Below are positions 16,238 through 54,818 of a DNA stretch of 64,000 bases, piece after piece; within the stretch, counting starts at the first letter, position 1; each line of letters opens with the position of its first letter. Under the pieces are notes generated by a model. It was not told where the DNA came from, did not search any database, and saw nothing but the letters and a program-made list of their open reading frames with translations. The DNA comes from an uncultured Gammaproteobacteria bacterium (lineage in GTDB: Bacteria > Patescibacteriota > Patescibacteriia > Magasanikbacterales > UBA922). Made by a program: the position numbers and the translations under genes. Location of the stretch: assembly GCA_964597575.1 (NCBI GenBank), contig CAZQXB010000001.1, forward strand, positions 842,892 through 906,891, in the 5' to 3' direction.

Positions 16238-16311
16238 GGGCTGGTAGTTCAACTGGTTAGAGCACTGCCCTGTCACGGCAGAAGTTGCGGGTTCGAACCC
16301 CGTCCAGCCCG
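16238..16311 (+). tRNA. tRNA-Asp (GTC).
   Basis: Cloverleaf folded by hand: acceptor GGGCTGG/CCAGCCC, anticodon loop CTGTCAC, T-arm GCGGGTTCGAACCCCGT, discriminator G. Confidence 0.85.
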
Positions 16312-17931
16312 CACAACGGAACGAACAGCGTCAGCATACGCTGTTTTGTTTTTGGTTGAGCCATTTTTTACAGTTATAGTGGCCGCAACCTCTTCTTTTA
16401 GGTCAATCAAAAACTGATATTGCTTTTCGGCTGAGTTGACGACTAATTTATCCTTAAGTGCGGGGTTGTAGTACAAAAATTGGAATACCTCTCTTTTCTT
16501 CTCTAAAGAGAGATTTGGATACTTATTTCTAAGCTCACAAGCAAAATCAAAATAAGCCACACACTTATCATACCAATTCAGTCTTTCCTGCTTTAACTCT
16601 ACCCGTCTTTTCAGGAGTTGGTTTCTCTCATCCACAATCCCCTTTTTTCTTCTTAAGAATTCCTCATTATCTAAAAGTAATCCATCTGTGTTATCAGGAG
16701 AAATCTTAAGTGTGACCAGATTGTCCAACTTAATCTCGCATTCCTTAATTTTTCTCTCCTGCTGCTCATCAATCTTGGTAGACACACCAACCTCCTCCTC
16801 ATTTGCCTTATTAAGCTCTTCGATTGCTAAACGCATAAAATCCTCATCTATCGCGAGCCTGCCAACCTCAACTAACACCTGCTCCTCAACTTTTTCCTCA
16901 CGGATATACGATTTACCTACACATTTCATGCACCGATAATACCTATGCCCCTTGGCCATCATGCCTGAAATAGTACCCCCGCAATCGCCGCAACTCATGA
17001 AATTACTATATGGGTAAAACGTAATCGTAGAAACAGGATGACTATTATTTTTTAAAATCTTTTGATTCTGTACAAAAACTTCCCGAGAAATAATCGGATC
17101 ATGACGATTCTCCGCTGGAAGATCCTCTGGTTCAATAATTTCACCTTTCCAACGAATAGCGCCGTAATAAAAGGGATTCTTTAGAATTCGTTCAATAGTA
17201 GCACCGCTTACCATTTTCTTTGATCTTGTAGCGGTCAACCCTAAATCAAAAGAAGCTCTCCGTAAAGCATTCATACTGTATTGACCCGTTGCGTGTAGCT
17301 CACAAGTTTTTTTTAAAATTTCAGAAATAAAAGGATCTGGCTCAATACGTTTAAGGCGTCTCCCTAGTTTCTGCAAAGCCTCCTGTTTCTCAAAAGAGTA
17401 TTGTTTGCCAGAAATTTTCCCCTCCCTGTCTATATTAAGATACCCAATAGGTGCAAAATCAGGATATTCCCCTTTCCTTAATTTTGCCTGTATATCTCGC
17501 TTAACGAAATCACTAGTGTCATCTGAACTCTTTTTAGCCATGGCAAAATGTATCTGCATCATGAACTTGTCATCTGTAGTATTCGTATAGAGCTTCTCAG
17601 GCGTCCTAATCCCCTTTATAAGCCCCTGATCCATCATATAGATGATTTGCCCGCCATCGAGGCTATTACGTGCTAAGCGCGTCAAATGATAGGTCAGAAT
17701 ACAGTTTGCTTTCCCTGACCGGATAAGCTCTAGCAACCTACCAAATTCTTCACGGCCTTCTTTATACGCACTTTTAGACTCAGCCAAAAGCTCCAACACG
17801 GTAAGCTTGTCCCGTAAGGCAATATCGCCCATTTCTTTCTTTTGTGAATCAATCGAAAGAACTTGTCGATCTTCGGAATCGGAAGACTTTCTACAGTAGG
17901 TAACATACAAGAACTCTGATGTCTTATTCAT
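16273..17931 (-). CDS. Large serine recombinase (integrase).
   Basis: N-terminal resolvase-type catalytic region (YCRKSSDSEDRQVLSIDSQ), recombinase domain, Cys-x2-Cys zinc ribbon (CGDCGG ... YYRCMKC) and coiled coil. The last 13 codons overlap tRNA-Asp. Confidence 0.8.
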   Translation of the reverse strand: MNKTSEFLYVTYCRKSSDSEDRQVLSIDSQKKEMGDIALRDKLTVLELLAESKSAYKEGREEFGRLLELIRSGKANCILTYHLTRLARNSLDGGQIIYMMDQGLIKGIRTPEKLYTNTTDDKFMMQIHFAMAKKSSDDTSDFVKRDIQAKLRKGEYPDFAPIGYLNIDREGKISGKQYSFEKQEALQKLGRRLKRIEPDPFISEILKKTCELHATGQYSMNALRRASFDLGLTATRSKKMVSGATIERILKNPFYYGAIRWKGEIIEPEDLPAENRHDPIISREVFVQNQKILKNNSHPVSTITFYPYSNFMSCGDCGGTISGMMAKGHRYYRCMKCVGKSYIREEKVEEQVLVEVGRLAIDEDFMRLAIEELNKANEEEVGVSTKIDEQQERKIKECEIKLDNLVTLKISPDNTDGLLLDNEEFLRRKKGIVDERNQLLKRRVELKQERLNWYDKCVAYFDFACELRNKYPNLSLEKKREVFQFLYYNPALKDKLVVNSAEKQYQFLIDLKEEVAATITVKNGSTKNKTAYADAVRSVVRAGRGSNPQLLP

Positions 17932-17943
17932 ACAGACAACATC

Positions 17944-18087
17944 TTACCGTTGGTTGCCATAATAAGCAATTTTAACTATCTTAATAAGACGAGAGAATGC
18001 TTCAAAGGCCTCCTGGTGTTCCAGGTGCACACCATACTTCCTTTCGTACAGTGCCATAAATTTTTGGAGGCCTTCCTCAGAGATCAT
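17944..18087 (-). CDS. Small 47-aa ORF (MISEEGLQKFMALYERKYGVHLEHQEAFEAFSRLIKIVKIAYYGNQR) immediately upstream of the recombinase. Candidate regulator or recombination directionality factor.
   Basis: Manual translation. Below the ORF-track size cutoff. Same strand as the recombinase and 12 nt from its start. Confidence 0.25.
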   Translation of the reverse strand: MISEEGLQKFMALYERKYGVHLEHQEAFEAFSRLIKIVKIAYYGNQR

Positions 18088-18194
18088 AGTAAATTACGAA
18101 ACTCTTACTTAATCGTTCTTCTGTAGTTCTACTAAAATAATGGAATTCTTATACGACCTATAAAGTTCCAAATTACGTAACCTGTACACAACAT

Positions 18195-19571
18195 TTAATA
18201 TTTGACTTGTAACCCCATGTCATCTAATTCTTTTTGGAGAGATCCCTCTCCTTTCTTTGACTCCTTAGAAATGTTCATAACATTCATATGTTCAAAATCA
18301 AAACCATACTTTTTCGCTAATTTTTCTAAATTCTCGTTTAACCCATTATCTTCTAGAACAAAACCATTCATCTTTTTTACGACCTTTAGATGAAGTTTAT
18401 TTCTTACAATTTCACCAATTTTTCGAGGGCTTAACACTGTTTCATCAGAAGAAAATAAGTGATTATAGCCCTCAGCAACACGCTTCATTGTAATTCCACG
18501 CTCATCCAGACCAACTCGGATATTAATAATTGTTTCTAATACCTGACCCTCAAAACTCATTCCACGATCATTCATTAACTCTTTACCGTATCCTCGAATC
18601 ATCTCCATGAGTTCTAGTCTTAAATTCTGATCATTAATAATACTCAGTAATGGCGCTATTATCTGATTAAGTCGTGACTCAACAGAGTGATCATAAACCG
18701 AAAGATCGATTGCTTTTTTTCCATAATTCCTTAGTCGCCACATGAGGCACTTATTTCGTATAACCGTAGCTTCCTGGTCGAAACTATCATTTAGGTTAAT
18801 CGGAACATCTCTTCTGGTTAATTTCCCATCCATACGCTCTACTAAAAATCGGCTTTCTAGAGCTTTATCCTCAAACTTATTGCGTGTCGCAACGATCTTG
18901 GGGCAAAACACATCAAATGATGCGATATCATTGGGGTTCTTTCTATCCTTGCAACGTAATATTGCTAAACCGGTCTGAAAACCATTATTAAGAATTTTTA
19001 TAATATCTACATTGGTATCACTAAAACGTAAATCAGCCTCATCTAAAATGAGGGTTCCTTTATACAAATCTATAAGACGAAAAATTGGAGCTGAAGTAGT
19101 CGCCCCCATTGTAAACATAGGTTTATAGCATACAGAACCAACTACCTTTAAAAACCGACTTTTACCGCTACCATAGTCGCCAATAGCGCGAAGATAGGGT
19201 AATTCTTTAAAAGAGTCATATGTCCAAGTCAATAGAACATAATAAGGGGCTATTTTTTCAAAAAACGAACTAATTTCTAAATACTTATGTATAAAATTCG
19301 CAATCTCATCAATAAGGTCTTTATCATTACCATATTCTGAGGGCTCTGTAGGGAATAAAATGACCTTATTCCTCACAAGATCGGCATCTGGAGGAAACGG
19401 GAAGATAACCCCTCCATTTGTTTCTACAAAATCCTTAATAACAACATCTCCATTACAATAACCAACAAATTTTGTGACTTGAGTATTGGGATCATAAATC
19501 ATCTCAAATATACCTTCATCGGTCTTAACCAATGAGGATTTTTTAGTTTTTTCTTCTAAATTCATATTCAT
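18195..19571 (-). CDS. P-loop NTPase, putative phage/plasmid replication protein (primase-helicase / VirE-like).
   Basis: Walker A GDYGSGKS and Walker B LILDEADL. Located on the integrative element. Confidence 0.45.
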   Translation of the reverse strand: MNMNLEEKTKKSSLVKTDEGIFEMIYDPNTQVTKFVGYCNGDVVIKDFVETNGGVIFPFPPDADLVRNKVILFPTEPSEYGNDKDLIDEIANFIHKYLEISSFFEKIAPYYVLLTWTYDSFKELPYLRAIGDYGSGKSRFLKVVGSVCYKPMFTMGATTSAPIFRLIDLYKGTLILDEADLRFSDTNVDIIKILNNGFQTGLAILRCKDRKNPNDIASFDVFCPKIVATRNKFEDKALESRFLVERMDGKLTRRDVPINLNDSFDQEATVIRNKCLMWRLRNYGKKAIDLSVYDHSVESRLNQIIAPLLSIINDQNLRLELMEMIRGYGKELMNDRGMSFEGQVLETIINIRVGLDERGITMKRVAEGYNHLFSSDETVLSPRKIGEIVRNKLHLKVVKKMNGFVLEDNGLNENLEKLAKKYGFDFEHMNVMNISKESKKGEGSLQKELDDMGLQVKY

Positions 19572-19596
19572 TGCATTAAAAGTGTGTAAACCGAAA

Positions 19597-19848
19597 TTAG
19601 CGACGTTTAAAAATTGCCTGAGCAGTACGAATACCTTCTATCATGTCATGGGCATACACCTTTAACTTTTTTGAAAGTAGCTGGGTTAATATGCGTTTAC
19701 ATTTCCCTTGATCCTCAAAACGAAAAAAAACGGTTCCTCGCTCGGCCACTTCATATCCATCAACCACACAACCAGCACTTAGTAAAACGTAGATTTCAAA
19801 ACGATCTTTAGTTACATAAAATGGTACGTAATCTATTTTCATATACAT
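19597..19848 (-). CDS. Hypothetical small protein (83 aa).
   Basis: ORF on the element upstream of the NTPase gene. A perfect 22-nt palindrome (19908-19929) follows the upstream gene. Confidence 0.3.
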   Translation of the reverse strand: MYMKIDYVPFYVTKDRFEIYVLLSAGCVVDGYEVAERGTVFFRFEDQGKCKRILTQLLSKKLKVYAHDMIEGIRTAQAIFKRR

Positions 19849-19937
19849 TAAATTAAAAAAATAAACTGCTTATGATCGCAGTTTATCAAATGGTATTTAT
19901 TGTTATACCCTCGTCGAATGCAGCTGCATTCGACGTA

Positions 19938-20645
19938 TCACCTAAACTTAGCCTTGACTCTTCCTAAATTAGACTTTACGCTATTTGGCGTAACATTTTT
20001 ATAGCCCCATTCTTTCAAGATAGCAGCAATAACCTGATTTTTATACCTGTATTTTTTACTTTTATCTTTTAATAATTGAGGGAGAAAATTGATTGAACAT
20101 TCATTAAGTCTAACACACGCCATGACTAAATTTTTATCTTTGAAAGGGGAGATTCTTTTTAACGGGCTATACACTGCACACCGTTTTATTTCAGATTTTA
20201 TATTCTTCCAATTACTTTTAATATACTGCAAAACATCATCCCTAGATGCCATTTCAGGAATTATTAGTTTTACATATGACTGGCCGTTTTCAATCACTCC
20301 ATCTCTGGAAGGCAATTCAATCAAAAAACCAACACTTGATACTTTTTCTTTAATTTTATCAAAATAATCTCCGAGTATTATGTAATTTTTAAGCAAACTT
20401 AAAAAATTTGGAGTCTGTGGTATTTTGTATTTTTTTAGAATTTCTCTTTCTTTAAGTTGAAATTCAGATAAACTGATAGTAGTTTTCTCGAGTGAAGATA
20501 GATATCTTTTGTAATGATCTTGACTGGAAAATCCCCCTATCGGGATATTAAAAATTAAACGAAATAAGTGTATATCCTCCAAAAACTCCTTATTGAAAAT
20601 GAGAGAGTAGAACAGTTCTTTAGCCTTATTAGTCTCGTTTTTCAT
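19938..20645 (-). CDS. Hypothetical protein (235 aa).
   Basis: AT-rich ORF on the element. Confidence 0.35.
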   Translation of the reverse strand: MKNETNKAKELFYSLIFNKEFLEDIHLFRLIFNIPIGGFSSQDHYKRYLSSLEKTTISLSEFQLKEREILKKYKIPQTPNFLSLLKNYIILGDYFDKIKEKVSSVGFLIELPSRDGVIENGQSYVKLIIPEMASRDDVLQYIKSNWKNIKSEIKRCAVYSPLKRISPFKDKNLVMACVRLNECSINFLPQLLKDKSKKYRYKNQVIAAILKEWGYKNVTPNSVKSNLGRVKAKFR

Positions 20646-20926
20646 AACATATTCATATAATTTTATAAGCTAAATATACACCTTTTTCTTATTTTGATAT
20701 ATCGATAAGACTTGAAGAATAACTCTGGATAAGGTAATCTAAATTCAACAATTCAAGCCTAAACTCAATAGTCCCCCTATTGGGCATGGCACATAAACTA
20801 CACAAATATAGAGATGGCTATGCCGTCTTTGGTATTATTTGTGTAGTCAGTAGTCGAAAGGCTACTGGGCCCCTAACGGGGTCGCCAAAGCAACGGATAG
20901 CCTTTTTTGTTATCTATTTTAGAAAT

Positions 20927-21613
20927 ATGGCAAAATACGAATCTATTGAGGATCTAAAAATAAAGTGGTGGTACCGACTTTTTCAGGTAATACTTACTTG
21001 TTTCTATCTAGCATCTTTAGCGTATGGAATTGGCTTAGTAGTGATTGAAATGGTGCAACCAAATTATGTACTTGATAGACAAAATTCAACCGTTACCTGT
21101 AAATATGGGACAAAAAAATCTTATTCCTTTTTTGAAGGAAATGTTTACGAACCAGTCTTCCCTTCTGACATTCAAAGATTATGTAATGGGAATGGTAACC
21201 AAGAGATAGTAGACCGAGTAAAGGAAATGCGTGACGCAAAATTTGATGATAAGAAAATTTTATCTTTATTCTACGAAGCAAGTGAGCAAGACTGGAGGGA
21301 TTATGTAGACGAAGCAGGAAAAAGTAGTAGCCCCACAGAAATAGTAAATAGTTTTGTTTTAGATAGTCTTATTTTAAGTGAAATTGATGCACAAAAAGTC
21401 CTAAATGACCCCAGAGAAATATACGTATCCGTACATACAGTATTTAAGGCTGATAAAAGTCCTTGGGATTTAATGTGGGCAAAAATTGGATACTCTGTAT
21501 TAACTATTCTTGGTATAAGCACTGTATTTGAAATTATTAGAAGCGTTTTTAATTACATCATTGCAGGGAAATACTTTCCTCTCAAATTTATGAATATTTT
21601 TAATAAGAAATAA
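20927..21613 (+). CDS. Hypothetical membrane protein with two TM segments.
   Basis: Start moved to MAKYES. Hydrophobic helices (VILTCFYLASLAYGIGLVVI; YSVLTILGISTVF). Confidence 0.35.
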   Translation: MAKYESIEDLKIKWWYRLFQVILTCFYLASLAYGIGLVVIEMVQPNYVLDRQNSTVTCKYGTKKSYSFFEGNVYEPVFPSDIQRLCNGNGNQEIVDRVKEMRDAKFDDKKILSLFYEASEQDWRDYVDEAGKSSSPTEIVNSFVLDSLILSEIDAQKVLNDPREIYVSVHTVFKADKSPWDLMWAKIGYSVLTILGISTVFEIIRSVFNYIIAGKYFPLKFMNIFNKK

Positions 21614-21616
21614 TGT

Positions 21617-22846
21617 ATGAGAAAAATTATATTACTGGCGATTTTAGCGGTATCGTTTATTCCAATGGTAACACATGCAAGTTTTGACGCTAGCCTTAGA
21701 TACGGAGCAAAAGGTAAAGCCGTAACTGAGCTTCAGGAATTTCTTGCTCAACAAAAACTATATTCAGGACCTATTACAGGAAATTTTTATAGCATGACCC
21801 TTAAGGCGGTTACAGCTTTCCAAAAGCAAGAAAAGCTTCCCTCAACTGGTTATGTGGGCCCACTTACACGTGAAAAGATGAAACTCTACACTAAAGAAAA
21901 AATGAATATACAAGAATCCGAGAAACCGATACCACCCGCAGATATTCCTTACATAAGCTTTCCTACCAACGCACAAATAATCACAAAAACCGATGATCAA
22001 ACAAAAATTCTGCAGGATCAATTAACTAAACAACAAGCACAGAACGATTTATTAAAGAGACAGATTGAATACCAGAAGCATACACAAAGAAAGATAGAAG
22101 AAAGCTTAAATAAGATAGAACAAAATACCAGATCAATACCCACCCTAAACGCACCTCCTGTTCAACCGCCTCCATCTGTTACTCTAAAAGCTTTCGCACC
22201 AAATAAAAACGGAAAGGTACTGACAATAAAATCAACTGAAAAAATAACAATTGATATTAATATTGGTAATCCTAACGCAAATAACCTAAACCCAGGGTAT
22301 ACCTGCATCAAATTCGGTGATTGGCAAGGTCAAATTGTTCCGGTTGATCACAATGAGTCTAGTGCGCAGGATAGCAACTTAGACTTTTCAAAGTTGATTA
22401 CTGGAGGAAATAAAACATTTGGAGTAACCTGTTCTAATTCAGCAGGTAGCAAAACTGATTCAGTAACAATAGATATTGAACCATTGCCCGTAGTAGCTAA
22501 AAAAGTTCCGACGGACTTAAAGGTTGTCAAAAGTTCTGATTTTGCATATTCCCTAGAGAATCTGGGTGTATTTACAGAGATCCTCCAGTATTCTGTGGAT
22601 TACGAAGTATATCTTGTTGATAAGGATGGCAATAATTATCCAGAATTTGCAAACACAATAATTAGTGTGAATGCACCTGATCGCGATAGAATGACCGCCT
22701 ATCAGCTTACCACTTTGAAACCACCACTTTCGGCTAGCGGTATGGATGGGGTGACATTTCACTACACACCAAGAACAAAAGGGCTACAAACCATAACATT
22801 CTTTACGGATAGTTTCACCAAATCAATAGTCTTGGAAGTGAGGTAA
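21617..22846 (+). CDS. Secreted protein with an N-terminal peptidoglycan-binding-like domain and a coiled-coil/Gln-rich region.
   Basis: Signal peptide. PG_binding_1-like segment (GAKGKAVTELQEFLAQQKLYSGPITGNFYSMTLKAVTAFQKQEKLPSTGYVGPLT). Confidence 0.5.
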   Translation: MRKIILLAILAVSFIPMVTHASFDASLRYGAKGKAVTELQEFLAQQKLYSGPITGNFYSMTLKAVTAFQKQEKLPSTGYVGPLTREKMKLYTKEKMNIQESEKPIPPADIPYISFPTNAQIITKTDDQTKILQDQLTKQQAQNDLLKRQIEYQKHTQRKIEESLNKIEQNTRSIPTLNAPPVQPPPSVTLKAFAPNKNGKVLTIKSTEKITIDINIGNPNANNLNPGYTCIKFGDWQGQIVPVDHNESSAQDSNLDFSKLITGGNKTFGVTCSNSAGSKTDSVTIDIEPLPVVAKKVPTDLKVVKSSDFAYSLENLGVFTEILQYSVDYEVYLVDKDGNNYPEFANTIISVNAPDRDRMTAYQLTTLKPPLSASGMDGVTFHYTPRTKGLQTITFFTDSFTKSIVLEVR

Positions 22847-22995
22847 TACACCCTTCTTTTAGAATGGTGAGTAAACAGGTAAATGTAGGAAGTAAAAATT
22901 TCAAAAAATAGGAATTACGAACGGAAAATTTCCCTAAACGATTCAAATATATTGCTAATTTAAGCCATTTTTTGATATTTAAATATCTTTTCTAC

Positions 22996-23024
22996 TTGAC
23001 CAAAACAAGTGAATAACGTAATAT
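22996..23024 (+). promoter_or_regulatory. Promoter: TTGACC, 17-nt spacer, TAATAT, upstream of the hicB/hicA pair.
   Basis: Read directly. Confidence 0.45.
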
Positions 23025-23082
23025 ATACCATTACAAAGATCGGATAAGATGGTATTATATCTGTATAAATAAACTTAAGCCT

Positions 23083-23391
23083 ATGCTTAACAAATTGTTT
23101 CGTACAATTTTTCCAGCAATGAGTCCCGCGGATATCGTTAAGCAGTACCATATCCCGTCAAAAATCAAATTTAATTTTCAAACAAAAGACGGATGGACTG
23201 TTGCTACTTCTGAGGACTTGCCAGGTTTCGTTACTGAGGCGCGTAATGATCGAGAGTTGTTAGAAATGATTAACGACGGTATTTTAACGTACTTTGATGT
23301 TCCCCGTCGTGCTGGTGACACCCTCCACGGAAAGCTAGTTACTGAGGGGCACGGAATCATATCCTTGAATGAACAGCCTCAAACAGTTTAA
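23083..23391 (+). CDS. hicB: HicB-like antitoxin (N-terminal HicB fold).
   Basis: KIKFNFQTKDGWTVATSEDLPGFVTEARNDRELLEMINDGILTYFD matches the HicB N-domain pattern. It is followed 5 nt later by hicA. Confidence 0.55.
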   Translation: MLNKLFRTIFPAMSPADIVKQYHIPSKIKFNFQTKDGWTVATSEDLPGFVTEARNDRELLEMINDGILTYFDVPRRAGDTLHGKLVTEGHGIISLNEQPQTV

Positions 23392-23396
23392 CTGCT

Positions 23397-23636
23397 ATGG
23401 GCGAATTTACATTTAACCGTCGGGAGTGTATACGAGCATTAGTGAAGTTGGGTTTTTACCTCGATAATAAGCGCTCAGGTAAACACGATAAGTATAAAGC
23501 ACCGTTTAGTAATGCCAACCCGCCATTTATCATGGTTCCTAGACACAATGAGATTCATTGTCAGGATGCAATCATAAAGGAACTGGAAAAAATGGGCGGG
23601 AAAGAATTAGTCGAAAAATTTAAGCACTATTTATAA
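23397..23636 (+). CDS. hicA: HicA toxin (YcfA-like, mRNA interferase).
   Basis: RRECIRALVKLGF ... SGKHDKYK ... IMVPRHNEIHCQDAIIKELEKMG aligns with E. coli HicA (RRWLESQGV ... GSNHLKL ... VMPRHPCDEIKEPLRKAILKQLGL). Confidence 0.75.
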   Translation: MGEFTFNRRECIRALVKLGFYLDNKRSGKHDKYKAPFSNANPPFIMVPRHNEIHCQDAIIKELEKMGGKELVEKFKHYL

Positions 23637-23643
23637 AAAGCCT

Positions 23644-24360
23644 CTAGGAAGGCTTTTTATAAATACTAATCTCACGCTGGCGCATATCTAAAAAGTCGAG
23701 GACTTCTTTGATTTCAGTCTCATTTAAGACTCTCAATCCTCGTTTTATTAACCAAGGAGCAAAACTCCGCCCACCAATCCAGACCCCCTGAACAGGTCGT
23801 TTAATAACCACTCTTGCATGAGGAAATAGAAGAAGGCTGGTGACAGGATAATCCCTGCCAGTCTTTTCTTTTAGTAAGTTCTCTACATAATGGGCCTCAG
23901 CTTTGGCTTGGCCTATAAAATCTCTTTCTGTTTCTTGACCGTTAATTAAAATTCTATTTTCTAGATTTGTAACCACACCCCTCATGGCCTTTACTTCGAT
24001 CGTAAAAATACCAGTTTCTCCGACACAAATATAATCAATGTTCCCACGTCCTGTGTCATAATCAGGCAGTAGCTTATAGGAAGGAGTCAGAGTTTCTAAC
24101 ACACTACCCATCACCCACTCTGCTCCAGTCCCTCTACCCCAAGTGAAATAATTAAGCCTTCTCAGATCACTCAAGATATCTGCAAAAACACCAAATAAAA
24201 AGACGACAAGAAAAATAAATGGAATTGAATATTTACCTGAAAAATTTGCCCCAATGTAAAGAAGGAAAAGCGTATATAAAACTCCACATAAAATTACCAA
24301 CTGAATACGGTTCTTATTCCTTTTATACGTCGTGTACGTATACGAATCCCTGTTATCCAT
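23644..24360 (-). CDS. NERD (nuclease-related domain) protein with two N-terminal TM helices.
   Basis: NIDYICVGETGIFTIEVKAMRG matches the NERD core (IDhvlI..GIFVIExK). Confidence 0.55.
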   Translation of the reverse strand: MDNRDSYTYTTYKRNKNRIQLVILCGVLYTLFLLYIGANFSGKYSIPFIFLVVFLFGVFADILSDLRRLNYFTWGRGTGAEWVMGSVLETLTPSYKLLPDYDTGRGNIDYICVGETGIFTIEVKAMRGVVTNLENRILINGQETERDFIGQAKAEAHYVENLLKEKTGRDYPVTSLLLFPHARVVIKRPVQGVWIGGRSFAPWLIKRGLRVLNETEIKEVLDFLDMRQREISIYKKPS

Positions 24361-24427
24361 ATAAAGGGGCTTGATTTTGATAATAACAGCGATATGATAC
24401 CATTTTAGGCCTTATGGATACATATAT

Positions 24428-25558
24428 ATGCCATCTACAGAACTATATGTTTTCAAATACACCAGAAAACCAGAATACTACAGTGATCTCTATGACAAAG
24501 GGACTATTGCGGAGTGTAAGTATTACCTGGATGCGTTTACCATAGACCCTAAAAAACTCTCAGAACCCCTTAAGGAAGAAAATGGGGAAGAAATGACTCC
24601 TGAGAAAAGGCAGGCACTCTATAAGTCGTTTGCAGACTTGAGCCTGTACTTCACTCGGGGTGAGCGTTATATGGCCAAGGACAAAACGATTAAAGAGTGG
24701 ATGGATAGAGATCGCAAACTAGATGAGAGATTAGCAAGAGTAACCATTAAAACAAGGTATTGTGATCGATGCGGCCAAACCATGGATTGTATAGATAAAA
24801 GCTATCAGGGGGCAAATAACGAGCGAATTATCGTAATGTACATGTGCCCCGACTGTAAAAGAGCACGGGCCTTTTATGATAATGGTGAGGAATATGATCC
24901 AGAGAGTAAGTGTAAAAAATGTTATAGTACAAATACTAGTAAATCCATACGAAACGGGAGGACTATCACTATTACAGACACCTGTGATAATTGTGGAAAC
25001 GTAGAAGTAGATGACATAACACTTAGCGAAGAAAAACAACCGGATAAGGCACAGGAAGAAAAGGAACGCCGTCAGTTTATCGCTGATCGTGAGAAGTATT
25101 GTATTGATGACCAAAAAGGAGGTGAATATATAAGCTTCAAAGAAGGTTTAAAAACAATGGAAGAAATAGCCAATAAGCACAAAGAAAAAGAGAATAATAA
25201 GGCTCTCTACGACGAAGTGGCCAAAGTACAAAAACTCAATGTTGCACAACTGAAACAACTACTCTCCCCTGCCCTAGAGAAAGAAAAGTACACTGCCCTT
25301 GAATTTAGTAACCCTGAAATGAAACGAGGGGTTATTGTTAGTTTTACTGTTCAAGAAAATGATACTGACCGCAAAGAATATGACAGTAAACATGGCTTAC
25401 GTAAATTGATTGACGCCACCCTCCTCAATACCAACTGGCGTTTGATGTCAGATGGTATTTATACTAGACTTGGAGTACTTTCTGGTAGACTTAAAGGGGT
25501 GGAATCTGAAGAGGAAATTGCTAATTTGATTAAAAAGGATAGACTAAAAAATCTATGA
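24428..25558 (+). CDS. Hypothetical protein with four CxxC zinc-ribbon motifs and Lys/Glu-rich coiled-coil regions.
   Basis: CDRCGQ ... CPDCKR ... CKKCYS ... CDNCGN. Confidence 0.4.
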   Translation: MPSTELYVFKYTRKPEYYSDLYDKGTIAECKYYLDAFTIDPKKLSEPLKEENGEEMTPEKRQALYKSFADLSLYFTRGERYMAKDKTIKEWMDRDRKLDERLARVTIKTRYCDRCGQTMDCIDKSYQGANNERIIVMYMCPDCKRARAFYDNGEEYDPESKCKKCYSTNTSKSIRNGRTITITDTCDNCGNVEVDDITLSEEKQPDKAQEEKERRQFIADREKYCIDDQKGGEYISFKEGLKTMEEIANKHKEKENNKALYDEVAKVQKLNVAQLKQLLSPALEKEKYTALEFSNPEMKRGVIVSFTVQENDTDRKEYDSKHGLRKLIDATLLNTNWRLMSDGIYTRLGVLSGRLKGVESEEEIANLIKKDRLKNL

Positions 25559-26034
25559 ACCATACTCAGCTACAGGATGAATCAGAAATAGCGTGTGTCT
25601 CTAGGTTTATCGAGACATACAATGTTACACATGGTACAAATTTTACACTCATCCAAAAAAATCCCATTCAAAACGAGGTGGACATTTTTTGCATAGATGA
25701 ATCTAATGGTACAAAAATTCAGGTACAAGTTAAAAAATCAGATCCTACGATGGCAGGTGATGTGGGTAAACTTCGGGGAGTTCCTTCTGCAAAGAAAAAT
25801 CAAATTCACAGACATAGTACGGGAATTTTAGAAAATGTTATAAACAATATAAACAATGTTGAAAACAAATATAAAGAACAAAACAAAAATATGTCGAAAA
25901 TAATATTATTACTTGATGATCTCGGAGATCCTCCTGATTTTATACTACACCAGACTAAAGAAAAAATTCCAAAAAATTCGTTTAAGGAGATATGGATGAC
26001 AAGAAGGCGACAAAGTCCCTATAGGCTATACTAA
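25555..26034 (+). CDS. Hypothetical protein (159 aa), translationally coupled to the zinc-ribbon protein by a 4-nt overlap.
   Basis: ORF and overlap read directly. Confidence 0.35.
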   Translation: MNHTQLQDESEIACVSRFIETYNVTHGTNFTLIQKNPIQNEVDIFCIDESNGTKIQVQVKKSDPTMAGDVGKLRGVPSAKKNQIHRHSTGILENVINNINNVENKYKEQNKNMSKIILLLDDLGDPPDFILHQTKEKIPKNSFKEIWMTRRRQSPYRLY

Positions 26035-26050
26035 AGGTAAAATATTAGTA

Positions 26051-26788
26051 TCAAATTGAATCTTTACTTTTTAGATATGTTTTTACTGATAGTTCTCTTT
26101 TTAATTCTAAATAAATTTTTTTATGAAGGATTTCTAAGTCCTTATGGGTGATAGCAAAATTATCTGTAAAAGAGAGTTTATTATATTTTTTATTTACTTC
26201 ACAAATTGAACCAAGAATAACTCTGGCAATCTCAGCTATAAAAAATAGATTCGTCCTCACTGTTTTTTCATCCCATTCGTCAAAAAAAGTCATACCGACC
26301 TTTCCATCCATTTTAAAATTTTGAAATGCATTACTAGCATTCGAATGCGAAAAGTTATCGTTCATATAGTCTTTTAATCTTTTTATTTGGCTACTTGCTT
26401 CAGGAAAGTTTAAAAATAACCACTTATACGCATCATCTTTTAGTTTTTTACTTCTAAAAAAGTCAGTCTTCTTATTCTTTTCTTCTGTAAAAACCTTAAC
26501 ATCGAATGACAGTAAATACAGAGCAATCGCCGCAGCTTCAAGCACCTGCCTTAAACACATAAATGATTGAACTTGATGTTTTCTTATAGAAGACAAAAAT
26601 GCAAGTCCTAAATGTTTTTGTATTTGAGAATAAAAAACAAAAAAGAAAAAACCGTCATGGTTTATAGGAGAAAAAGGTGTAGATAGAAATTCAAGCCATT
26701 GATAGGCATTATCATAAAACAGCCCGTTCTCCTGTTGTGCAATATCAGTAAGTCTGTTTTCAATTTCTATTATTTCTTCAAAATTCAT
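26051..26788 (-). CDS. Hypothetical protein (245 aa), downstream partner of the DUF4238-like gene with a 4-nt overlap.
   Basis: ORF and overlap read directly. Confidence 0.4.
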   Translation of the reverse strand: MNFEEIIEIENRLTDIAQQENGLFYDNAYQWLEFLSTPFSPINHDGFFFFVFYSQIQKHLGLAFLSSIRKHQVQSFMCLRQVLEAAAIALYLLSFDVKVFTEEKNKKTDFFRSKKLKDDAYKWLFLNFPEASSQIKRLKDYMNDNFSHSNASNAFQNFKMDGKVGMTFFDEWDEKTVRTNLFFIAEIARVILGSICEVNKKYNKLSFTDNFAITHKDLEILHKKIYLELKRELSVKTYLKSKDSI

Positions 26789-27774
26789 AACGGATAATTG
26801 TCAGGGCTTACTAAAGACAAAAAACGAAGCATTCGATCCAATTTTGTCATCGGCTTTTTTTTGATCTGTTCCTCAAATTCTTCTCGACGAGCCCCATAAG
26901 CTTCTTTCATCGAAAGATTGAGCCGTAAAGTGTTTATATCAAATACTTTTTTATCGTCAGCCCATTTTCTTTTCAACCTTTTACGAGAATGAGGGTAGAT
27001 AAACTCTATAACTACCTTTGGACCGAGGGCAAAATAATGTGTTCTCTCAAGGAAAGACGCACCATAAAAACCTGTTCTCTCTGGAATAAACTCAACAACT
27101 GGTGTATCAGAAGTAAAAAAATCAGACTCCCCTTTGGCGATATGAACCATCCAATTTTTTCCGTAGAATAGGTTGGCAAACCCCCTCATCTCACCTAACA
27201 AATTCAAATGGCTCGCGTTATTGAACTCTAAGCCATACTCTTCATTAATGAGCATTTGCTTATACGAATCTACATCTTCCAAGGAAATCTCTCTTTCACC
27301 GAGAGAGTCTACTTTTTCTTTCAGATCACTGGAGAATGTCTCCTGGCTCGCCCTGAATTTCATGCTGTGTTTATAGAACTCTTCATCCATTCTCTTTATC
27401 TGCCCCCTCATGTAACCTCCTCTCAAATAGAGCATGGAGGCAAGAGTGGCAATGGTATATCTTTCGCTTTCTGTAACAGACTCATAATGAAGTAGCTTTT
27501 GATAAATACCGTCTAATTTACCAGAGATGTCATCTTCGATCTGCCTAAAAAGCTCCTCTATAATCTGACTCACGTCATCGGGCACACCTGTGGTAACTGC
27601 ATAATAAAATTTTTCATAACAAACGCTAGCATAAGGTCTGAATGGCTCAATTCTTACTTTTTTGATATTCAAAACACTAACAAACCCCCTTTCATTGGCG
27701 AAACGTTTTGTGTAAAACTTTGGTACAAAGTGCTGCTTCTCTGTAATTGGCTTTTTAGCACTTATATTTGACAT
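26785..27774 (-). CDS. DUF4238-like protein.
   Basis: N-terminus KQHFVPKFYTKRF fits the H-[FY]-[VI]-P-x-F-[YL] start motif I associate with DUF4238. Located on the integrative element. Confidence 0.45.
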   Translation of the reverse strand: MSNISAKKPITEKQHFVPKFYTKRFANERGFVSVLNIKKVRIEPFRPYASVCYEKFYYAVTTGVPDDVSQIIEELFRQIEDDISGKLDGIYQKLLHYESVTESERYTIATLASMLYLRGGYMRGQIKRMDEEFYKHSMKFRASQETFSSDLKEKVDSLGEREISLEDVDSYKQMLINEEYGLEFNNASHLNLLGEMRGFANLFYGKNWMVHIAKGESDFFTSDTPVVEFIPERTGFYGASFLERTHYFALGPKVVIEFIYPHSRKRLKRKWADDKKVFDINTLRLNLSMKEAYGARREEFEEQIKKKPMTKLDRMLRFLSLVSPDNYPL

Positions 27775-27803
27775 ACCATACGGGCGACATAATAAAACAG
27801 AAA

Positions 27804-28127
27804 CTAGATAACGTCTTTATCTCGTGTGCAAAACATCTCCATAGGTAAATCCCCTTTATCAGGATACTGGGCAGTCATCCTATACTCTAAAATATTCTTT
27901 AAAGCAGAAATATCATTAAAAATTTTTGAAGCTTGTGCACCACATACACTTTTCGGCACATACTTACCTATAACCTTGCGAACCTGCCAATAACGCGTCT
28001 GTAAAGCTTTGAGTTCTGTGGCCATCTCCTTCCAATTCTCTATTGTGGGTTTTTCATATTTTGTCATAAGATATCTGTTATTTATAAAAATTTTTATAAG
28101 GTAAAAGTAGTATCTCACATAGTACAA
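27804..28127 (-). CDS. Hypothetical small protein (107 aa).
   Basis: ORF only. Confidence 0.3.
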   Translation of the reverse strand: MYYVRYYFYLIKIFINNRYLMTKYEKPTIENWKEMATELKALQTRYWQVRKVIGKYVPKSVCGAQASKIFNDISALKNILEYRMTAQYPDKGDLPMEMFCTRDKDVI

Positions 28128-28796
28128 TAATCTGCTGGATGCCTGTGGTTAACTTTAAACGGGGCCACGTACAGCGAATTTTATGGCTAAAATTTTGACT
28201 GAGATAATCATAGCTCATACAACATCTTCCATTTGACCGCATGTAAACCCTGAGCCAGACAGTGTGAGCTGTTAAATTAAAGCGAAAAATAGCCACATTA
28301 TTATAGGAAAAATGAAAATTTGGTTTACAAAAAATCGCTAAATAATCCATTTTTATGCTTTTATACGTTGATTTTCTCTTTATTTTTGTATACATTTTTG
28401 ATTGTAACTTACAGTCTAGTTTTTGCGGGCGATAAATTCAACTCAAACACCCCCGCTTTTTCACGCAAAAACTGTGCAATAATTATTAATTACTTATAAA
28501 AAGTAGCGGAAATTATAGTGTTTTAATAGCTTAATTTAGCTTTTTTTTACAAAGTACAAGCTTAAGTTAATTTTTGCACCATTATTGCGAGTTATCTAAT
28601 TACTTTTTATATACTAAATTAATTAATAATTAATACAAAAAATGAATGTATGAACATTATGAATGTTATAAAGATAATTTGGGTACACAGAAATAGCCTT
28701 GTAACTGAGCAAAGAAAGTTATAATCCCCTCCCGTCGGTTCCGCTACATAAAAAGGAACCTCTCCATAGGGGTTCCTTTTTATGTAGTTGTGTTTT

Positions 28797-28917
28797 GATA
28801 GGATTTCGAACCGAAAGGGTTTGGGAAAACTGCTTGGCGGTTTTCTTAACCTTAGTTGGGGGAAGGTTGGGAAGGGGTGGAAACCCTTTCCCAGGAGGAG
28901 GGGCAGCGACGAGTGAG
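28797..28917 (+). repeat. Copy 2 of the structured repeat. It begins with a TTCGAACC T-loop-like end (GGATTTCGAACCGAAAGGG).
   Basis: Alignment with copies 1 and 3. It lies just right of the integrative element and a long hairpin (CTACATAAAAAGGAACC ... GGTTCCTTTTTATGTAG). Confidence 0.65.
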
Positions 28918-29274
28918 AAAAAAACCGTACACACTTTTGTGTGTACAGCCCCAGAGAGTCCATAGTCGGCGCTGCACAGCGCCATATCGCGGGTGGCGTC
29001 GAGAGGTGGACCACCGGCGGTGGACTCATCGTCGAAGCCGTCGACGACCACATATATCAAGGACCACCATATACACATGGTACGTGATGCAAATCCCATC
29101 CATGATCCAACATATCGCCCAGAGGATGGTTTCTGCCATGACCCTCCTTCTCTACTCTCGACAAGCGTCTAGAATAGAGAAGGGTTTGCTATCAGAACGT
29201 ATTCAAGTTTCTCCACCTTCTTTTTTGAGGTATACTACATGTACACTTTCTTAATAAATTCCCTCAAAAAAAAT

Positions 29275-31851: not shown

Positions 31852-34800
31852 TTATTCACCTGAGCACACTTCGTATCCGGTTGGAACATCGCATGGTGTT
31901 GGATAAAGCGTGCACTCTCCGCCACTGCGCGGTTTCGCATACGTTACAATCTGCACACACGTTCGTTTTTCACGGATATCCCACTGATTTATGGGCTTAT
32001 CTGGAGTACCTTCAAATTTTATGGTGGCCAAAATAGCGTCGAGCTGTGGGGCTGTGGCATTTATTTCCACAAACATATCCGGTAAATCCACCTCAACAAT
32101 TTGATATGGTGCACCGTCTTTTGGAGAAATATCCGTGTAGCGAGTAGCTTTATATTCACCGAGCATGAAATCTGTTTTTCCAGTCGTCTTGGCTGGGTGG
32201 CGAACCAGCTGCTCAAACACACTTACAAAATGTCCGGTTTTCGCATCACGCATCGTCATTCCACCTGGCCAATACTCTACGGCCCAGCCGCGAGGATGTT
32301 CCAAAGAAAAATTAGCAAATGTGGTTACTTTAATGCGTACCGGGTCTTTTCCCAAAGATGTTGCCTCACGCTCAACCTCTTTTGCCGCGTCCAAAGCTTG
32401 TTTTGCCTCTAGTCGTTCTCGAATAAGACCAGGCGCAACATCGGTTACTGGGGCATTTTGAAACGCATTTATTTGAGGGTTCACACAACCAGCCCCAAGA
32501 CCCATGACCGCCGCGGAAAGAAGCCCGACAACTGCGACCAACCCAAGGTATGCCGGATTCGTTTTATGCCCCGTTTTTCCCAGAGTATTCTCGACAAACG
32601 CAATGCGTTCACGAGTTTTTACAATGGTATCGGGATTTAAGGAAATACTATCAATGCCTTCGCGAACTAAAAATTCGGCAAATTCAGGATAGTCGCTCGG
32701 TGCTTGACCACAGATTCCGATTTTTTTCTTGTTCTTTTTGGCCACGCGAATCACTTGGCGAATGAGAGTTTTTACGGCTTCATTGCGTTCATTGTACACA
32801 TGGCTCACAAGTGCTGAATCCCGATCAACCCCAAGAGTAAGTTGTGTAAGATCATTTGACCCGATACTAAACCCATCAAAAATTGCTGCAAATTCTTCAG
32901 CTAAAATAACATTTGAAGGAATTTCGCACATGACGTAGACCTGCAAACCATTTTCCCCACGTTTGAGTCCGAATTCAGCCATGGTTTTAAGTACCTGCTC
33001 ACCTTCTTCTGGGGTGCGACAAAAAGGAACCATGGTAATAACATTTGTAAGACCCCAGTCATTTCGTACTTTTTTGATCGCCTCGCACTCGAGCGCAAAC
33101 CCTGGCTTATATTCTTTTGAGTAGTACCGACTTGCCCCACGCCAACCGATCATCGGGTTTTCTTCTTTTGGCTCAAATTCTTTTCCCCCAAGGAGCGTCG
33201 CGTACTCATTTGTTTTAAAATCAGAAAAACGAATGATGACGTCGTGTGGATAAAATGCTGCCGCAATACGCGCAATACCTTCTGCGAGCCTATCCACGCA
33301 GTAATCCGTTTTTTTCGCATACCCGCGAGTAATCTCGGCAATTTGTTTTTTCGCATTTTTGTCGGCCAAGGTATCGTAGTGAACCAACGCCAACGGATGA
33401 ATGCGAATAAAATTCGTAAAAATAAACTCTTCGCGAGCTAACCCGACGCCATCGCTTGGAAGACGGGCCAGGCTAAACGCATTATCAGGATCACCCACAT
33501 TCATCATGATCTTTGTCTTTGTGGGAACCCCTGGCTTAACGTCGGTTTTCTTCACTTCAAACGGAAGAATACCCGCGTAAATGACCCCTTCATCCCCTTC
33601 GGCACAGGAAATTGTTACCGGGCGGCCCGTTTTAAGAAGTCTTCTTGCGCCTCGTGCCCCAACAATGGCAGGTACACCAAGTTCACGCGAAACAATAGCC
33701 GCATGCGAGGTCTTTCCACCCTCTTCAGTCACAATCGCTGAAGCAATACGCATAATCGGTTCCCAATCTGGGTCAGTAATGCGCGTAACTAAAACTTCTC
33801 CTTTTTTGAAAGATTTCATTTGCGACGGGTGTTCGATAACCCGCACATGGCCTGCACCAATTTTTTGCCCAACCGAAACTCCTCGAAGTAAAATATTCCC
33901 CTTTTGTTTGAGTTCAAATGACTCAATCACTAAATTTCCTTCTGTTTTTGCCTTCACTGTCTCGGGTCGCGCCTGAACAATAAACAATTCCCCGGACTCA
34001 CCATCTTTGGCCCATTCAATATCTTGAGCTCGACCATAGTGATCCTCAATTTGCATTCCCCATTTTGCAAGAGACACCACATCAGCATCGCTAATCGAAA
34101 AAGCATTGCGTTCAGCCTTGCCAGTAGATGCCTGCTTTGTTCCTGATCCGCCTTTTGCGTAAATAAGCTTTGCATCTTTTGTTCCAAGGGTGCGGCTAAT
34201 AATGGCTTTTTTTCCTTGCTTTATCCCTTCTTTGAAGACATAAAATTGATCGGGAGTCACGCGCCCCTTCACCACATACTCCCCAAGACCGTAAGAGGCA
34301 TTGATAAGTACTACCCCAGCAAAACCAGATTCGGTATCGATCGTAAACATGACCCCTGAAGACCCAACGTCAGAGCGAACCATTTTTTGAACACCGACAG
34401 ACAGTGCCACATTTAAGTGGTCAAACCCCTGCGCCTCACGGTAAGAAAGAGCGCGATCCGTAAAGAGTGAGGCCACGCACTTTTTTACCGCCAGAAGGAG
34501 ATCCTTTTCTCCGCGGATATTGAGATACGTCTCTTGTTGACCAGCAAAACTTGCACCAGGTAAGTCTTCAGCTGTCGCAGAAGAACGGACAGCAACTGAA
34601 AGTCGAGCATCTTTATATTCCTTGCCGAGTGCTTTGTACGCCTCACCAATTGCTTTCTCTACTTCCTTTGGCAGACGTTCTTTTAAAATAAGAGTGCGTA
34701 CGATTTTACCCACCTTCGCAAGCATGCGAACATCGGACACATCAAGCCCTTTAATCGCTTGTTTAATTTTTTTATCGAGTCCGGTTTCTTTAAGAAAAAG

Positions 34801-34980
34801 CCAGTAAGCTTCAGCTGTTACAGCAAAACCATTCGGCACACGCACTCCTTTTTGCGTAAGCTTGGCATACATTTCTCCAAGCGACGCATTTTTGCCTCCG
34901 ACAAGCGGCACGTCTGCAATCGTAATATCTTTAAAAGGAAGGACCAAGGCTTTGGATTTTTCAGAAGAAGAAGTGCTCAT
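31852..34980 (-). CDS. ppsA: Phosphoenolpyruvate synthase (pyruvate, water dikinase). The PpsA-like region of about 790 aa is fused to an extra C-terminal segment of about 250 aa that contains a TM helix.
   Basis: Collinear with PpsA throughout (VGGKNASLGEM, SSATAEDLPGASFAGQQETYLN, GGKTSHAAIVSRELGVPA, GFSIGSNDLTQLTLG, ICGQAPSDYPEFAEFLVREGIDSISLNPDT). The extension contains LGLVAVVGLLSAAVMGLGAGC. Confidence 0.8.
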   Translation of the reverse strand: MSTSSSEKSKALVLPFKDITIADVPLVGGKNASLGEMYAKLTQKGVRVPNGFAVTAEAYWLFLKETGLDKKIKQAIKGLDVSDVRMLAKVGKIVRTLILKERLPKEVEKAIGEAYKALGKEYKDARLSVAVRSSATAEDLPGASFAGQQETYLNIRGEKDLLLAVKKCVASLFTDRALSYREAQGFDHLNVALSVGVQKMVRSDVGSSGVMFTIDTESGFAGVVLINASYGLGEYVVKGRVTPDQFYVFKEGIKQGKKAIISRTLGTKDAKLIYAKGGSGTKQASTGKAERNAFSISDADVVSLAKWGMQIEDHYGRAQDIEWAKDGESGELFIVQARPETVKAKTEGNLVIESFELKQKGNILLRGVSVGQKIGAGHVRVIEHPSQMKSFKKGEVLVTRITDPDWEPIMRIASAIVTEEGGKTSHAAIVSRELGVPAIVGARGARRLLKTGRPVTISCAEGDEGVIYAGILPFEVKKTDVKPGVPTKTKIMMNVGDPDNAFSLARLPSDGVGLAREEFIFTNFIRIHPLALVHYDTLADKNAKKQIAEITRGYAKKTDYCVDRLAEGIARIAAAFYPHDVIIRFSDFKTNEYATLLGGKEFEPKEENPMIGWRGASRYYSKEYKPGFALECEAIKKVRNDWGLTNVITMVPFCRTPEEGEQVLKTMAEFGLKRGENGLQVYVMCEIPSNVILAEEFAAIFDGFSIGSNDLTQLTLGVDRDSALVSHVYNERNEAVKTLIRQVIRVAKKNKKKIGICGQAPSDYPEFAEFLVREGIDSISLNPDTIVKTRERIAFVENTLGKTGHKTNPAYLGLVAVVGLLSAAVMGLGAGCVNPQINAFQNAPVTDVAPGLIRERLEAKQALDAAKEVEREATSLGKDPVRIKVTTFANFSLEHPRGWAVEYWPGGMTMRDAKTGHFVSVFEQLVRHPAKTTGKTDFMLGEYKATRYTDISPKDGAPYQIVEVDLPDMFVEINATAPQLDAILATIKFEGTPDKPINQWDIREKRTCVQIVTYAKPRSGGECTLYPTPCDVPTGYEVCSGE

Positions 34981-54802: not shown

Positions 54803-54818
54803 ATGGTAAAACAAGGGT

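Follow-up and report, generated by a model that had tools for sequence, protein, structure and literature searches.

A divergent DUF4238 gene and a gene of an unannotated, repeatedly restriction-modification-embedded family adjoin on a tRNA-Asp-associated island without forming a conserved operon

A DUF4238 gene and the overlapping gene of a 245-aa protein, neighbours on an integrated island, do not form a conserved two-gene operon. Within 4-5 kb of the DUF4238 genes of ~100 loci, we found no ORF of the family to which the 245-aa protein belongs (hereafter, the partner family), and a DUF4238 gene occurred in none of 88 partner-family loci (~65 of them non-redundant). It is probable, in our view, that the DUF4238 protein acts alone and that the 245-aa protein constitutes a distinct, defence-associated module, both being merely co-transcribed cargo of one island. 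The 'DUF4238 two-gene system' put forward in a preliminary description of this DNA is not a conserved unit and pursuing it would mislead. The real lead is the partner family, which is unannotated, has a fold without solved relative, and is repeatedly embedded in restriction-modification (R-M) operons.

Both genes lie on the minus strand of the window, by which we mean the whole stretch of 64,000 nucleotides analysed, and their ORFs were present exactly at positions 26785-27774 (DUF4238, 329 aa) and 26051-26788 (245 aa). Reading of the sequence confirmed the 4-nt overlap by which the preliminary description had coupled them, an ATGA stop/start junction at 26785-26788 on the minus strand (ccg tta TGA overlapping ATG Aat). 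Together with the common orientation, this overlap implies co-expression of the two genes, possibly with translational coupling. As evidence of a functional link it is weak, because 4 of the 36 same-strand adjacent gene pairs of the window (11%) have an overlap of the same type. Upstream, a small ORF on the same strand (27804-28067, 87 aa from its ATG, taken from the ORF list and the sequence) ends 29 nt ahead of the DUF4238 start and is possibly co-transcribed with this gene; it showed no family, and tblastn retrieved a homologue in none of the fetched loci. The same genes, including the 87-aa ORF and the DUF4238/245-aa pair, were called in L172, an independently assembled version of this locus.

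Composition profiles placed both genes in a low-GC island of ~12 kb (16300-28700), with 25-43% GC across ~16.3-28.7 kb versus ~47% in the backbone and downstream. Its left end (16238-17931) is occupied by a tRNA-Asp gene at the island edge (16238-16312, plus strand; ARAGORN and Rfam) and by a large serine recombinase of 552 aa (16273-17931, minus strand); the recombinase carries Resolvase, Recombinase and Zn_ribbon_recom domains, and the 3' end of its gene overlaps the tRNA. We detected no att-like direct repeats or tRNA-end duplications at the island borders, a result compatible with a serine recombinase; the right border is therefore set by composition only. Between 23083 and 24360, Pfam searches identified a HicB-like DUF1902 protein (23083-23391, plus strand, E 2e-4, just under the cutoff), HicA (23397-23636, plus strand, E 5e-8) and a NERD nuclease-related gene (23644-24360, minus strand, E 1e-11). 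The context of an integrated, tRNA-Asp-associated mobile element with toxin-antitoxin and NERD genes close to the pair is thus supported, in agreement with the mobile element and the toxin-antitoxin and NERD neighbours described for this locus, and a defence role remains plausible.

The island and its surroundings exhibited several other features. A second unannotated pair, encoding proteins of 376 and 159 aa (24428-26034, plus strand) and likewise joined by a 4-nt overlap, is convergent with the DUF4238 pair, with 16 nt between the gene ends. The 376-aa protein carries several CxxC zinc-ribbon-like motifs; neither protein matched anything in Pfam, NCBIfam, PHROGs or PADLOC or had a homologue in any fetched locus. 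A LOOT RNA (RF03000) was recognised by Rfam within the low-GC island at 20756-20883 (plus strand), with 78.6 bits against a gathering score of 46.4, just upstream of the ORF at 20780-21613. Adjoining the serine recombinase is the gene of a 458-aa protein (18195-19571, minus strand) without Pfam family, a homologue of which (39% identical) is found in an Alphaproteobacteria MAG (L015, 6799-8064), 1.9 kb from a DUF4238 gene; this proximity may mark a related mobile element. This homologue apart, tblastn revealed no co-travelling genes for the other island proteins in any fetched locus. At the right island edge, the stretch 28700-29240 (~51% GC) has overlapping ORFs on both strands without Rfam match and could be a non-coding stretch or a gene remnant. 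Elsewhere in the window, the first 7000 positions have 56-67% GC, compared with ~47% in the rest of the backbone, and represent a second strong compositional break. One giant ORF of ~3,844 aa occupies 43445-54979 (minus strand), and the translation of a PEP-synthase-like ORF of 1,042 aa (31852-34980, minus strand) shows a C-terminal extension of ~250 aa with a hydrophobic segment.

The assignment of the 329-aa protein to DUF4238, first made from its KQHFVPKFY motif, was borne out by profile search: residues 13-296 matched positions 1-279 of the 281 of the Pfam model (PF14022), that is, its full length, with an E-value of 5.5e-31 and 108.4 bits versus a cutoff of 27. The N-terminal QH(F/Y)VPxFYL motif is present as KQHFVPKFY (residues 13-21, within residues 12-25, EKQHFVPKFYTKRF) and the C-terminal (T/S)SD(N/T)P motif as TSDTP (residues 221-225). 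In an alignment with 21 DUF4238 relatives, the columns of both motifs were invariant or nearly so (Q14, H15 and P18 among the nearly invariant ones), and the clade invariants comprised T62, G63, D66, S69, E73, E80, R118, R123, N186, H189, W208, F219, T221, D223, P225, R244, H246, P252 and N281. The ORF of the window is intact and keeps every one of these clade-invariant residues, the polar ones of which look like an enzyme or nucleotide-binding site. Its AF2 model is confident (pLDDT 88, pTM 0.84) and starts with a region of beta-strands, which is followed by a long insert of helices and, at the C terminus, by a beta-sheet; Foldseek returned no significant fold neighbour in the PDB (best E 0.53).

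DUF4238 is already a validated single-gene anti-phage family rather than an undescribed candidate. A single DUF4238 protein from a P2-prophage hotspot of E. coli conferred strong resistance to T7 (Rousset et al. 2022; PMC9122126), subsequent surveys have counted DUF4238 among the defence systems that they track, and PADLOC lists the family as 'DUF4238-Pers'. The preliminary description had presented the family as functionally uncharacterised, which holds for its mechanism but not for its activity, given the published anti-T7 resistance. TIR defence systems of the multi-domain or two-gene kind have also been reported to include a DUF4238 domain, so that this domain sometimes works with other modules. 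The PADLOC DUF4238-Pers model (PDLC03000) did not match the protein of the window at E<=0.1, and it did match 14 of its 21 close relatives (best E 1.2e-11). The gene of the window therefore adds a divergent member to a defence family that is already known, and, since it falls below the PADLOC model, its likeness to the tested E. coli protein is one of family only. Its value lies in providing a divergent DUF4238 representative, probably of a Patescibacteria lineage, for which a confident model and invariant residues to target by mutagenesis are now available. As for further DUF4238 genes, the phage and plasmid collections yielded only distant ones of Staphylococcus and Alicyclobacillus. The DUF4238 and the 245-aa protein both had their nearest relatives mostly in Patescibacteria MAGs, so that a Patescibacteria host is likely.

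The 245-aa protein had been described as belonging to no recognisable family. This stands as far as annotated families are concerned, with no match in Pfam, NCBIfam, PHROGs or PADLOC, but the protein is a member of a family that is itself unannotated. When 1.84 billion representatives were scanned exhaustively with HMMER, 371 clusters (50% identity) were recovered at E<=1e-3, 207 of them at E<=1e-10, nearly all with lengths of 235-265 aa. By these profile searches, the protein belongs to a real and sizeable family and is not an orphan. When 50 members were compared with Pfam and PADLOC, they yielded no meaningful match (the best PADLOC E-value was 0.0019, and only single members gave such matches), and none of the HEC models in the PADLOC library matched the family. 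No regulatory HTH domain was recognisable. Likewise, no Pfam domain was found fused to four longer members (P0073, P0093, P0065 and P0184); by eye, the extension of P0073 resembles several transmembrane helices.

Six residues (L62, R69, Q74, R80, E84 and H148) were invariant in the 50 aligned members and nine more (E10, F49, S66, H71, W123, K139, N150, F169 and D170) nearly so. The ORF of the window is intact and retains all the family-invariant residues. Its AF2 model (pLDDT 88.6, pTM 0.87) is all-helical, with eight helices, and had no significant Foldseek match in the PDB or BFVD. A PDB profile search produced a match to aldehyde-deformylating oxygenase that was only local (positions 84-141) and of borderline significance (E 1.5e-3), with E84 opposite an iron-ligand Glu. 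We rejected a ferritin-like di-iron or aldehyde-deformylating oxygenase identity, as the two E...ExxH motifs are not conserved and there is no match to the ferritin fold.

Across the ~65 non-redundant loci, the neighbours of the partner gene were heterogeneous. In five loci, this gene lies between the genes for the subunits of a known defence operon, of type I R-M in four of them (L121, L118, L190 and L191) and of type III R-M in the fifth (L120). With X for the partner gene, the arrangements are HsdM-X-HsdS-HsdR, with gaps of 6 and 0 nt (L121), HsdM-BroN-X-HsdS-SduA_C (L118), HsdM-BroN-X-HsdS-AbiJ_NTD4-...-HsdR (L190 and L191) and Mod-...-X-Res (L120). X-HsdS was also found in L113 and L163, and the position directly before hsdS recurs in five divergent loci. 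The R-M-embedded members are only 31-38% identical to one another. As a separate observation, in the operon segments L118 2485-4256 and L190 2984-4523, in which a Bro-N gene precedes the partner gene, the Bro-N proteins are 64% identical, versus only 32% for the partner proteins, so that turnover seems quicker in the position ahead of hsdS than in its Bro-N neighbour. Other members follow a reverse transcriptase (L153), MmeI and a KAP NTPase (L011) or a DUF2726 gene (L010), or lie, in Paenibacillus, close to RadC, ArdA and an integrase (L009), next to an AbiEii toxin on the Caulobacter henricii plasmid pCB4 (L173), or downstream of a MazG-like/SLFN helicase cassette (L188). This last cassette, with a MazG-like protein and an SLFN-group-3 helicase, adjoins the partner gene in L188 (1890-5729) and a DUF4238 gene in L003 (5001-8075), which suggests a common defence-island hotspot.

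R-M subunits and recombinases (Methylase_S, Resolvase, ResIII, SWI2_SNF2, Phage_integrase, N6_Mtase and N6_N4_Mtase) were the commonest families among the 148 neighbours recorded in 56 of these loci. R-M or defence genes lay within a few kb in ~12 of the ~65 non-redundant loci, a minority; many of these loci consist of short contigs, and housekeeping genes are found among the neighbours as well. The Caulobacter plasmid was the only context added by the phage and plasmid collections. No member was found in phage records, nor in viral contigs at the sensitivity of an IMG/VR pattern scan. The copy of the window has no R-M neighbour and follows DUF4238. Repeatedly, genes lodged within type I R-M, BREX, DISARM or Hma operons have been shown to be defence systems in their own right (TgvAB; the 'guilt-by-embedding' study), and by the same reasoning the partner family appears a worthwhile defence candidate. 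With its genomic signature (nested between hsdM and hsdS or mod and res, and found next to reverse transcriptase, KAP NTPase and DUF2726 genes), and being covered by none of Pfam, NCBIfam and PADLOC, the family offers a concrete target that could be put to phage challenge at low cost.

These contexts also bear on whether the 245-aa family could be a generic accessory or regulatory subunit that modulates or backs up the adjacent defence gene, as PrrC does for EcoprrI, instead of standing alone. Its members usually lie directly downstream of diverse defence genes with tight spacing (gaps of 0-30 nt in L010, L011, L121, L153 and L190), and the recurrent slot before hsdS would fit such a role. However, many members stand by themselves, with gaps >150 nt or non-defence neighbours (L001 and L009), no interaction partner is common to the loci of the family, and a recognisable regulatory HTH is lacking. 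We therefore regard an accessory subunit as an unlikely explanation, and favour a self-contained module.

The pairing itself was evaluated from both sides. The ~100 DUF4238 loci comprised six around the three closest homologues, 80 from species-representative genomes and 14 from viral contigs. We searched their six-frame ORFs by hmmsearch with the family HMMs at E<=1e-3 and read the called genes; the only partner-HMM match in the DUF4238 loci was the window itself, and the ORFs immediately downstream of DUF4238 still gave no partner-family match with the HMMER filters off. The DUF4238 relatives thus display a single-gene architecture, with no recurrent partner-family gene. In the three closest loci, the DUF4238 gene either lacks a downstream gene or is followed by one that is convergent or >120 nt away, and the partner is absent from all three: P0004 (49% identity; L002) is followed by a convergent integrase in a locus flanked by integrases, P0005 (43%; L003) belongs to a GmrSD-MutH-Dcm-DUF4238-MazG-SLFN helicase island, and P0008 (41%; L006) comes after a type I/IIG R-M cluster. 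In the opposite direction, the 88 partner loci corresponded to L001, L008-L011, 80 metagenome loci retrieved with an alignment of eight partner sequences (50 of them with >=1 kb of upstream flank), the Caulobacter plasmid (L173), L188 and L190, the last two being judged from their called genes. The closest partner homologue, P0002 (54% identity; L001), has a disrupted glycosyltransferase on one side and an unrelated gene on the other. The proposal of a conserved two-gene operon had been staked on the partner being conserved next to DUF4238 homologues, and it is not.

A narrower version of that proposal would be an obligate two-gene system (sensor plus effector, or toxin plus regulator) that is lineage-specific, a new combination existing only here. 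The same-strand ATGA overlap, the presence of both genes together in the independent assembly L172 as well, and the reported DUF4238 domains in multi-domain or two-gene TIR systems are in its favour. Nevertheless, the pairing was seen once among the ~100 DUF4238 and 88 partner loci, the nearest relatives of the two proteins (41-49% identity for DUF4238, 54% for the partner) are unpaired, and overlaps of this type are found in 11% of the same-strand gene pairs of the window, which makes an obligate pair improbable. That neither gene is anti-phage in this host, both being mobile-element cargo with another role (e.g., element maintenance) or decaying passengers, might be suspected from a DUF4238 protein below PADLOC detection and from a partner family that has some housekeeping neighbours and is absent from phage records and, as far as the pattern scan could detect, from viral contigs, but it is very unlikely in view of the two intact ORFs with all family-invariant residues, the confident structure models of both proteins, and the relatives' contexts dominated by R-M genes and recombinases.

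The reading that we prefer is, thus, one of two independent defence-island cargo genes placed side by side on a tRNA-Asp-associated integrated element and probably co-transcribed. For this host, we infer defence activity of either gene, and any catalytic mechanism, as follows. By analogy with the E. coli DUF4238 protein, the DUF4238 protein would act alone here too, presumably through an enzyme-like site of invariant polar residues formed by the QH(F/Y)VP motif, the TSD(T/N)P motif and the residues R118, R123, H189, R244 and H246. The partner family would move independently among defence loci, and the 245-aa protein would be a self-contained defence or defence-accessory module, analogous to other R-M-embedded genes. 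Its putative site is the invariant cluster R69, H71, Q74, R80, E84, K139, H148, N150 and D170, with which it would most likely function as an infection-triggered hydrolase or as a metal- or ligand-binding effector. More tentatively, with a likelihood that we place somewhat short of even, the partner family could be a new and fairly widespread anti-phage family (at least 371 clusters, from Patescibacteria to Paenibacillus and a Caulobacter plasmid) that has a conserved R/H/Q/R/E/K/H/N/D site and a helical fold without solved relative, acts by itself or, where nested in R-M operons of types I and III, as a back-up effector, and has here been recruited behind DUF4238.

Three kinds of known systems offer points of comparison. 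With the HEPN abortive-infection RNases, the 245-aa protein shares its small size, its all-helical make-up and an invariant His on a long helix, and the partner family occurs in defence islands and R-M operons. In the Foldseek search of the PDB, the only suggestive resemblance, a weak one, was to two HEPN structures, 2q00_A (E 0.45, probability 0.91, target TM-score 0.57) and 4nqf_B (E 0.74, probability 0.69); neither E-value is significant, and no match reached E<=0.001. In contrast with these RNases, the protein has no Pfam HEPN match and the family lacks the Rx4-6H motif, for which we rejected HEPN membership: H148 has a conserved Asn (N143), not an Arg, at -5 and K139 at -9, H71 has R69 at -2, and neither His is accompanied by a conserved Arg at -5 to -7.

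The second comparison is with the DUF4238 system itself (Rst_DUF4238/DUF4238-Pers). The protein of the window differs from it by being too divergent for the PADLOC model, by coming from a small-genome, probably Patescibacteria, lineage, by having its gene overlapped by a downstream one, and by a function that is still putative. The two agree in belonging, over the full length, to the same Pfam family; the gene of the window, too, is carried by an integrated mobile element along with further defence genes, and its relatives are single genes without fixed partner.

Finally, the partner family can be compared with the defence genes embedded in R-M operons (the HEC/PDC candidates of Payne et al. 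2024, TgvAB in a type I R-M operon of V. cholerae, and PrrC in EcoprrI). The family has no known domain and matches no PADLOC model, HEC or otherwise, and its copy in the window follows DUF4238 instead of residing in an R-M operon. As with many embedded systems, members also occur outside such operons, and those that are embedded sit, with near-zero gaps, between hsdM and hsdS or mod and res, just as these defence genes are nested in their own R-M operons.
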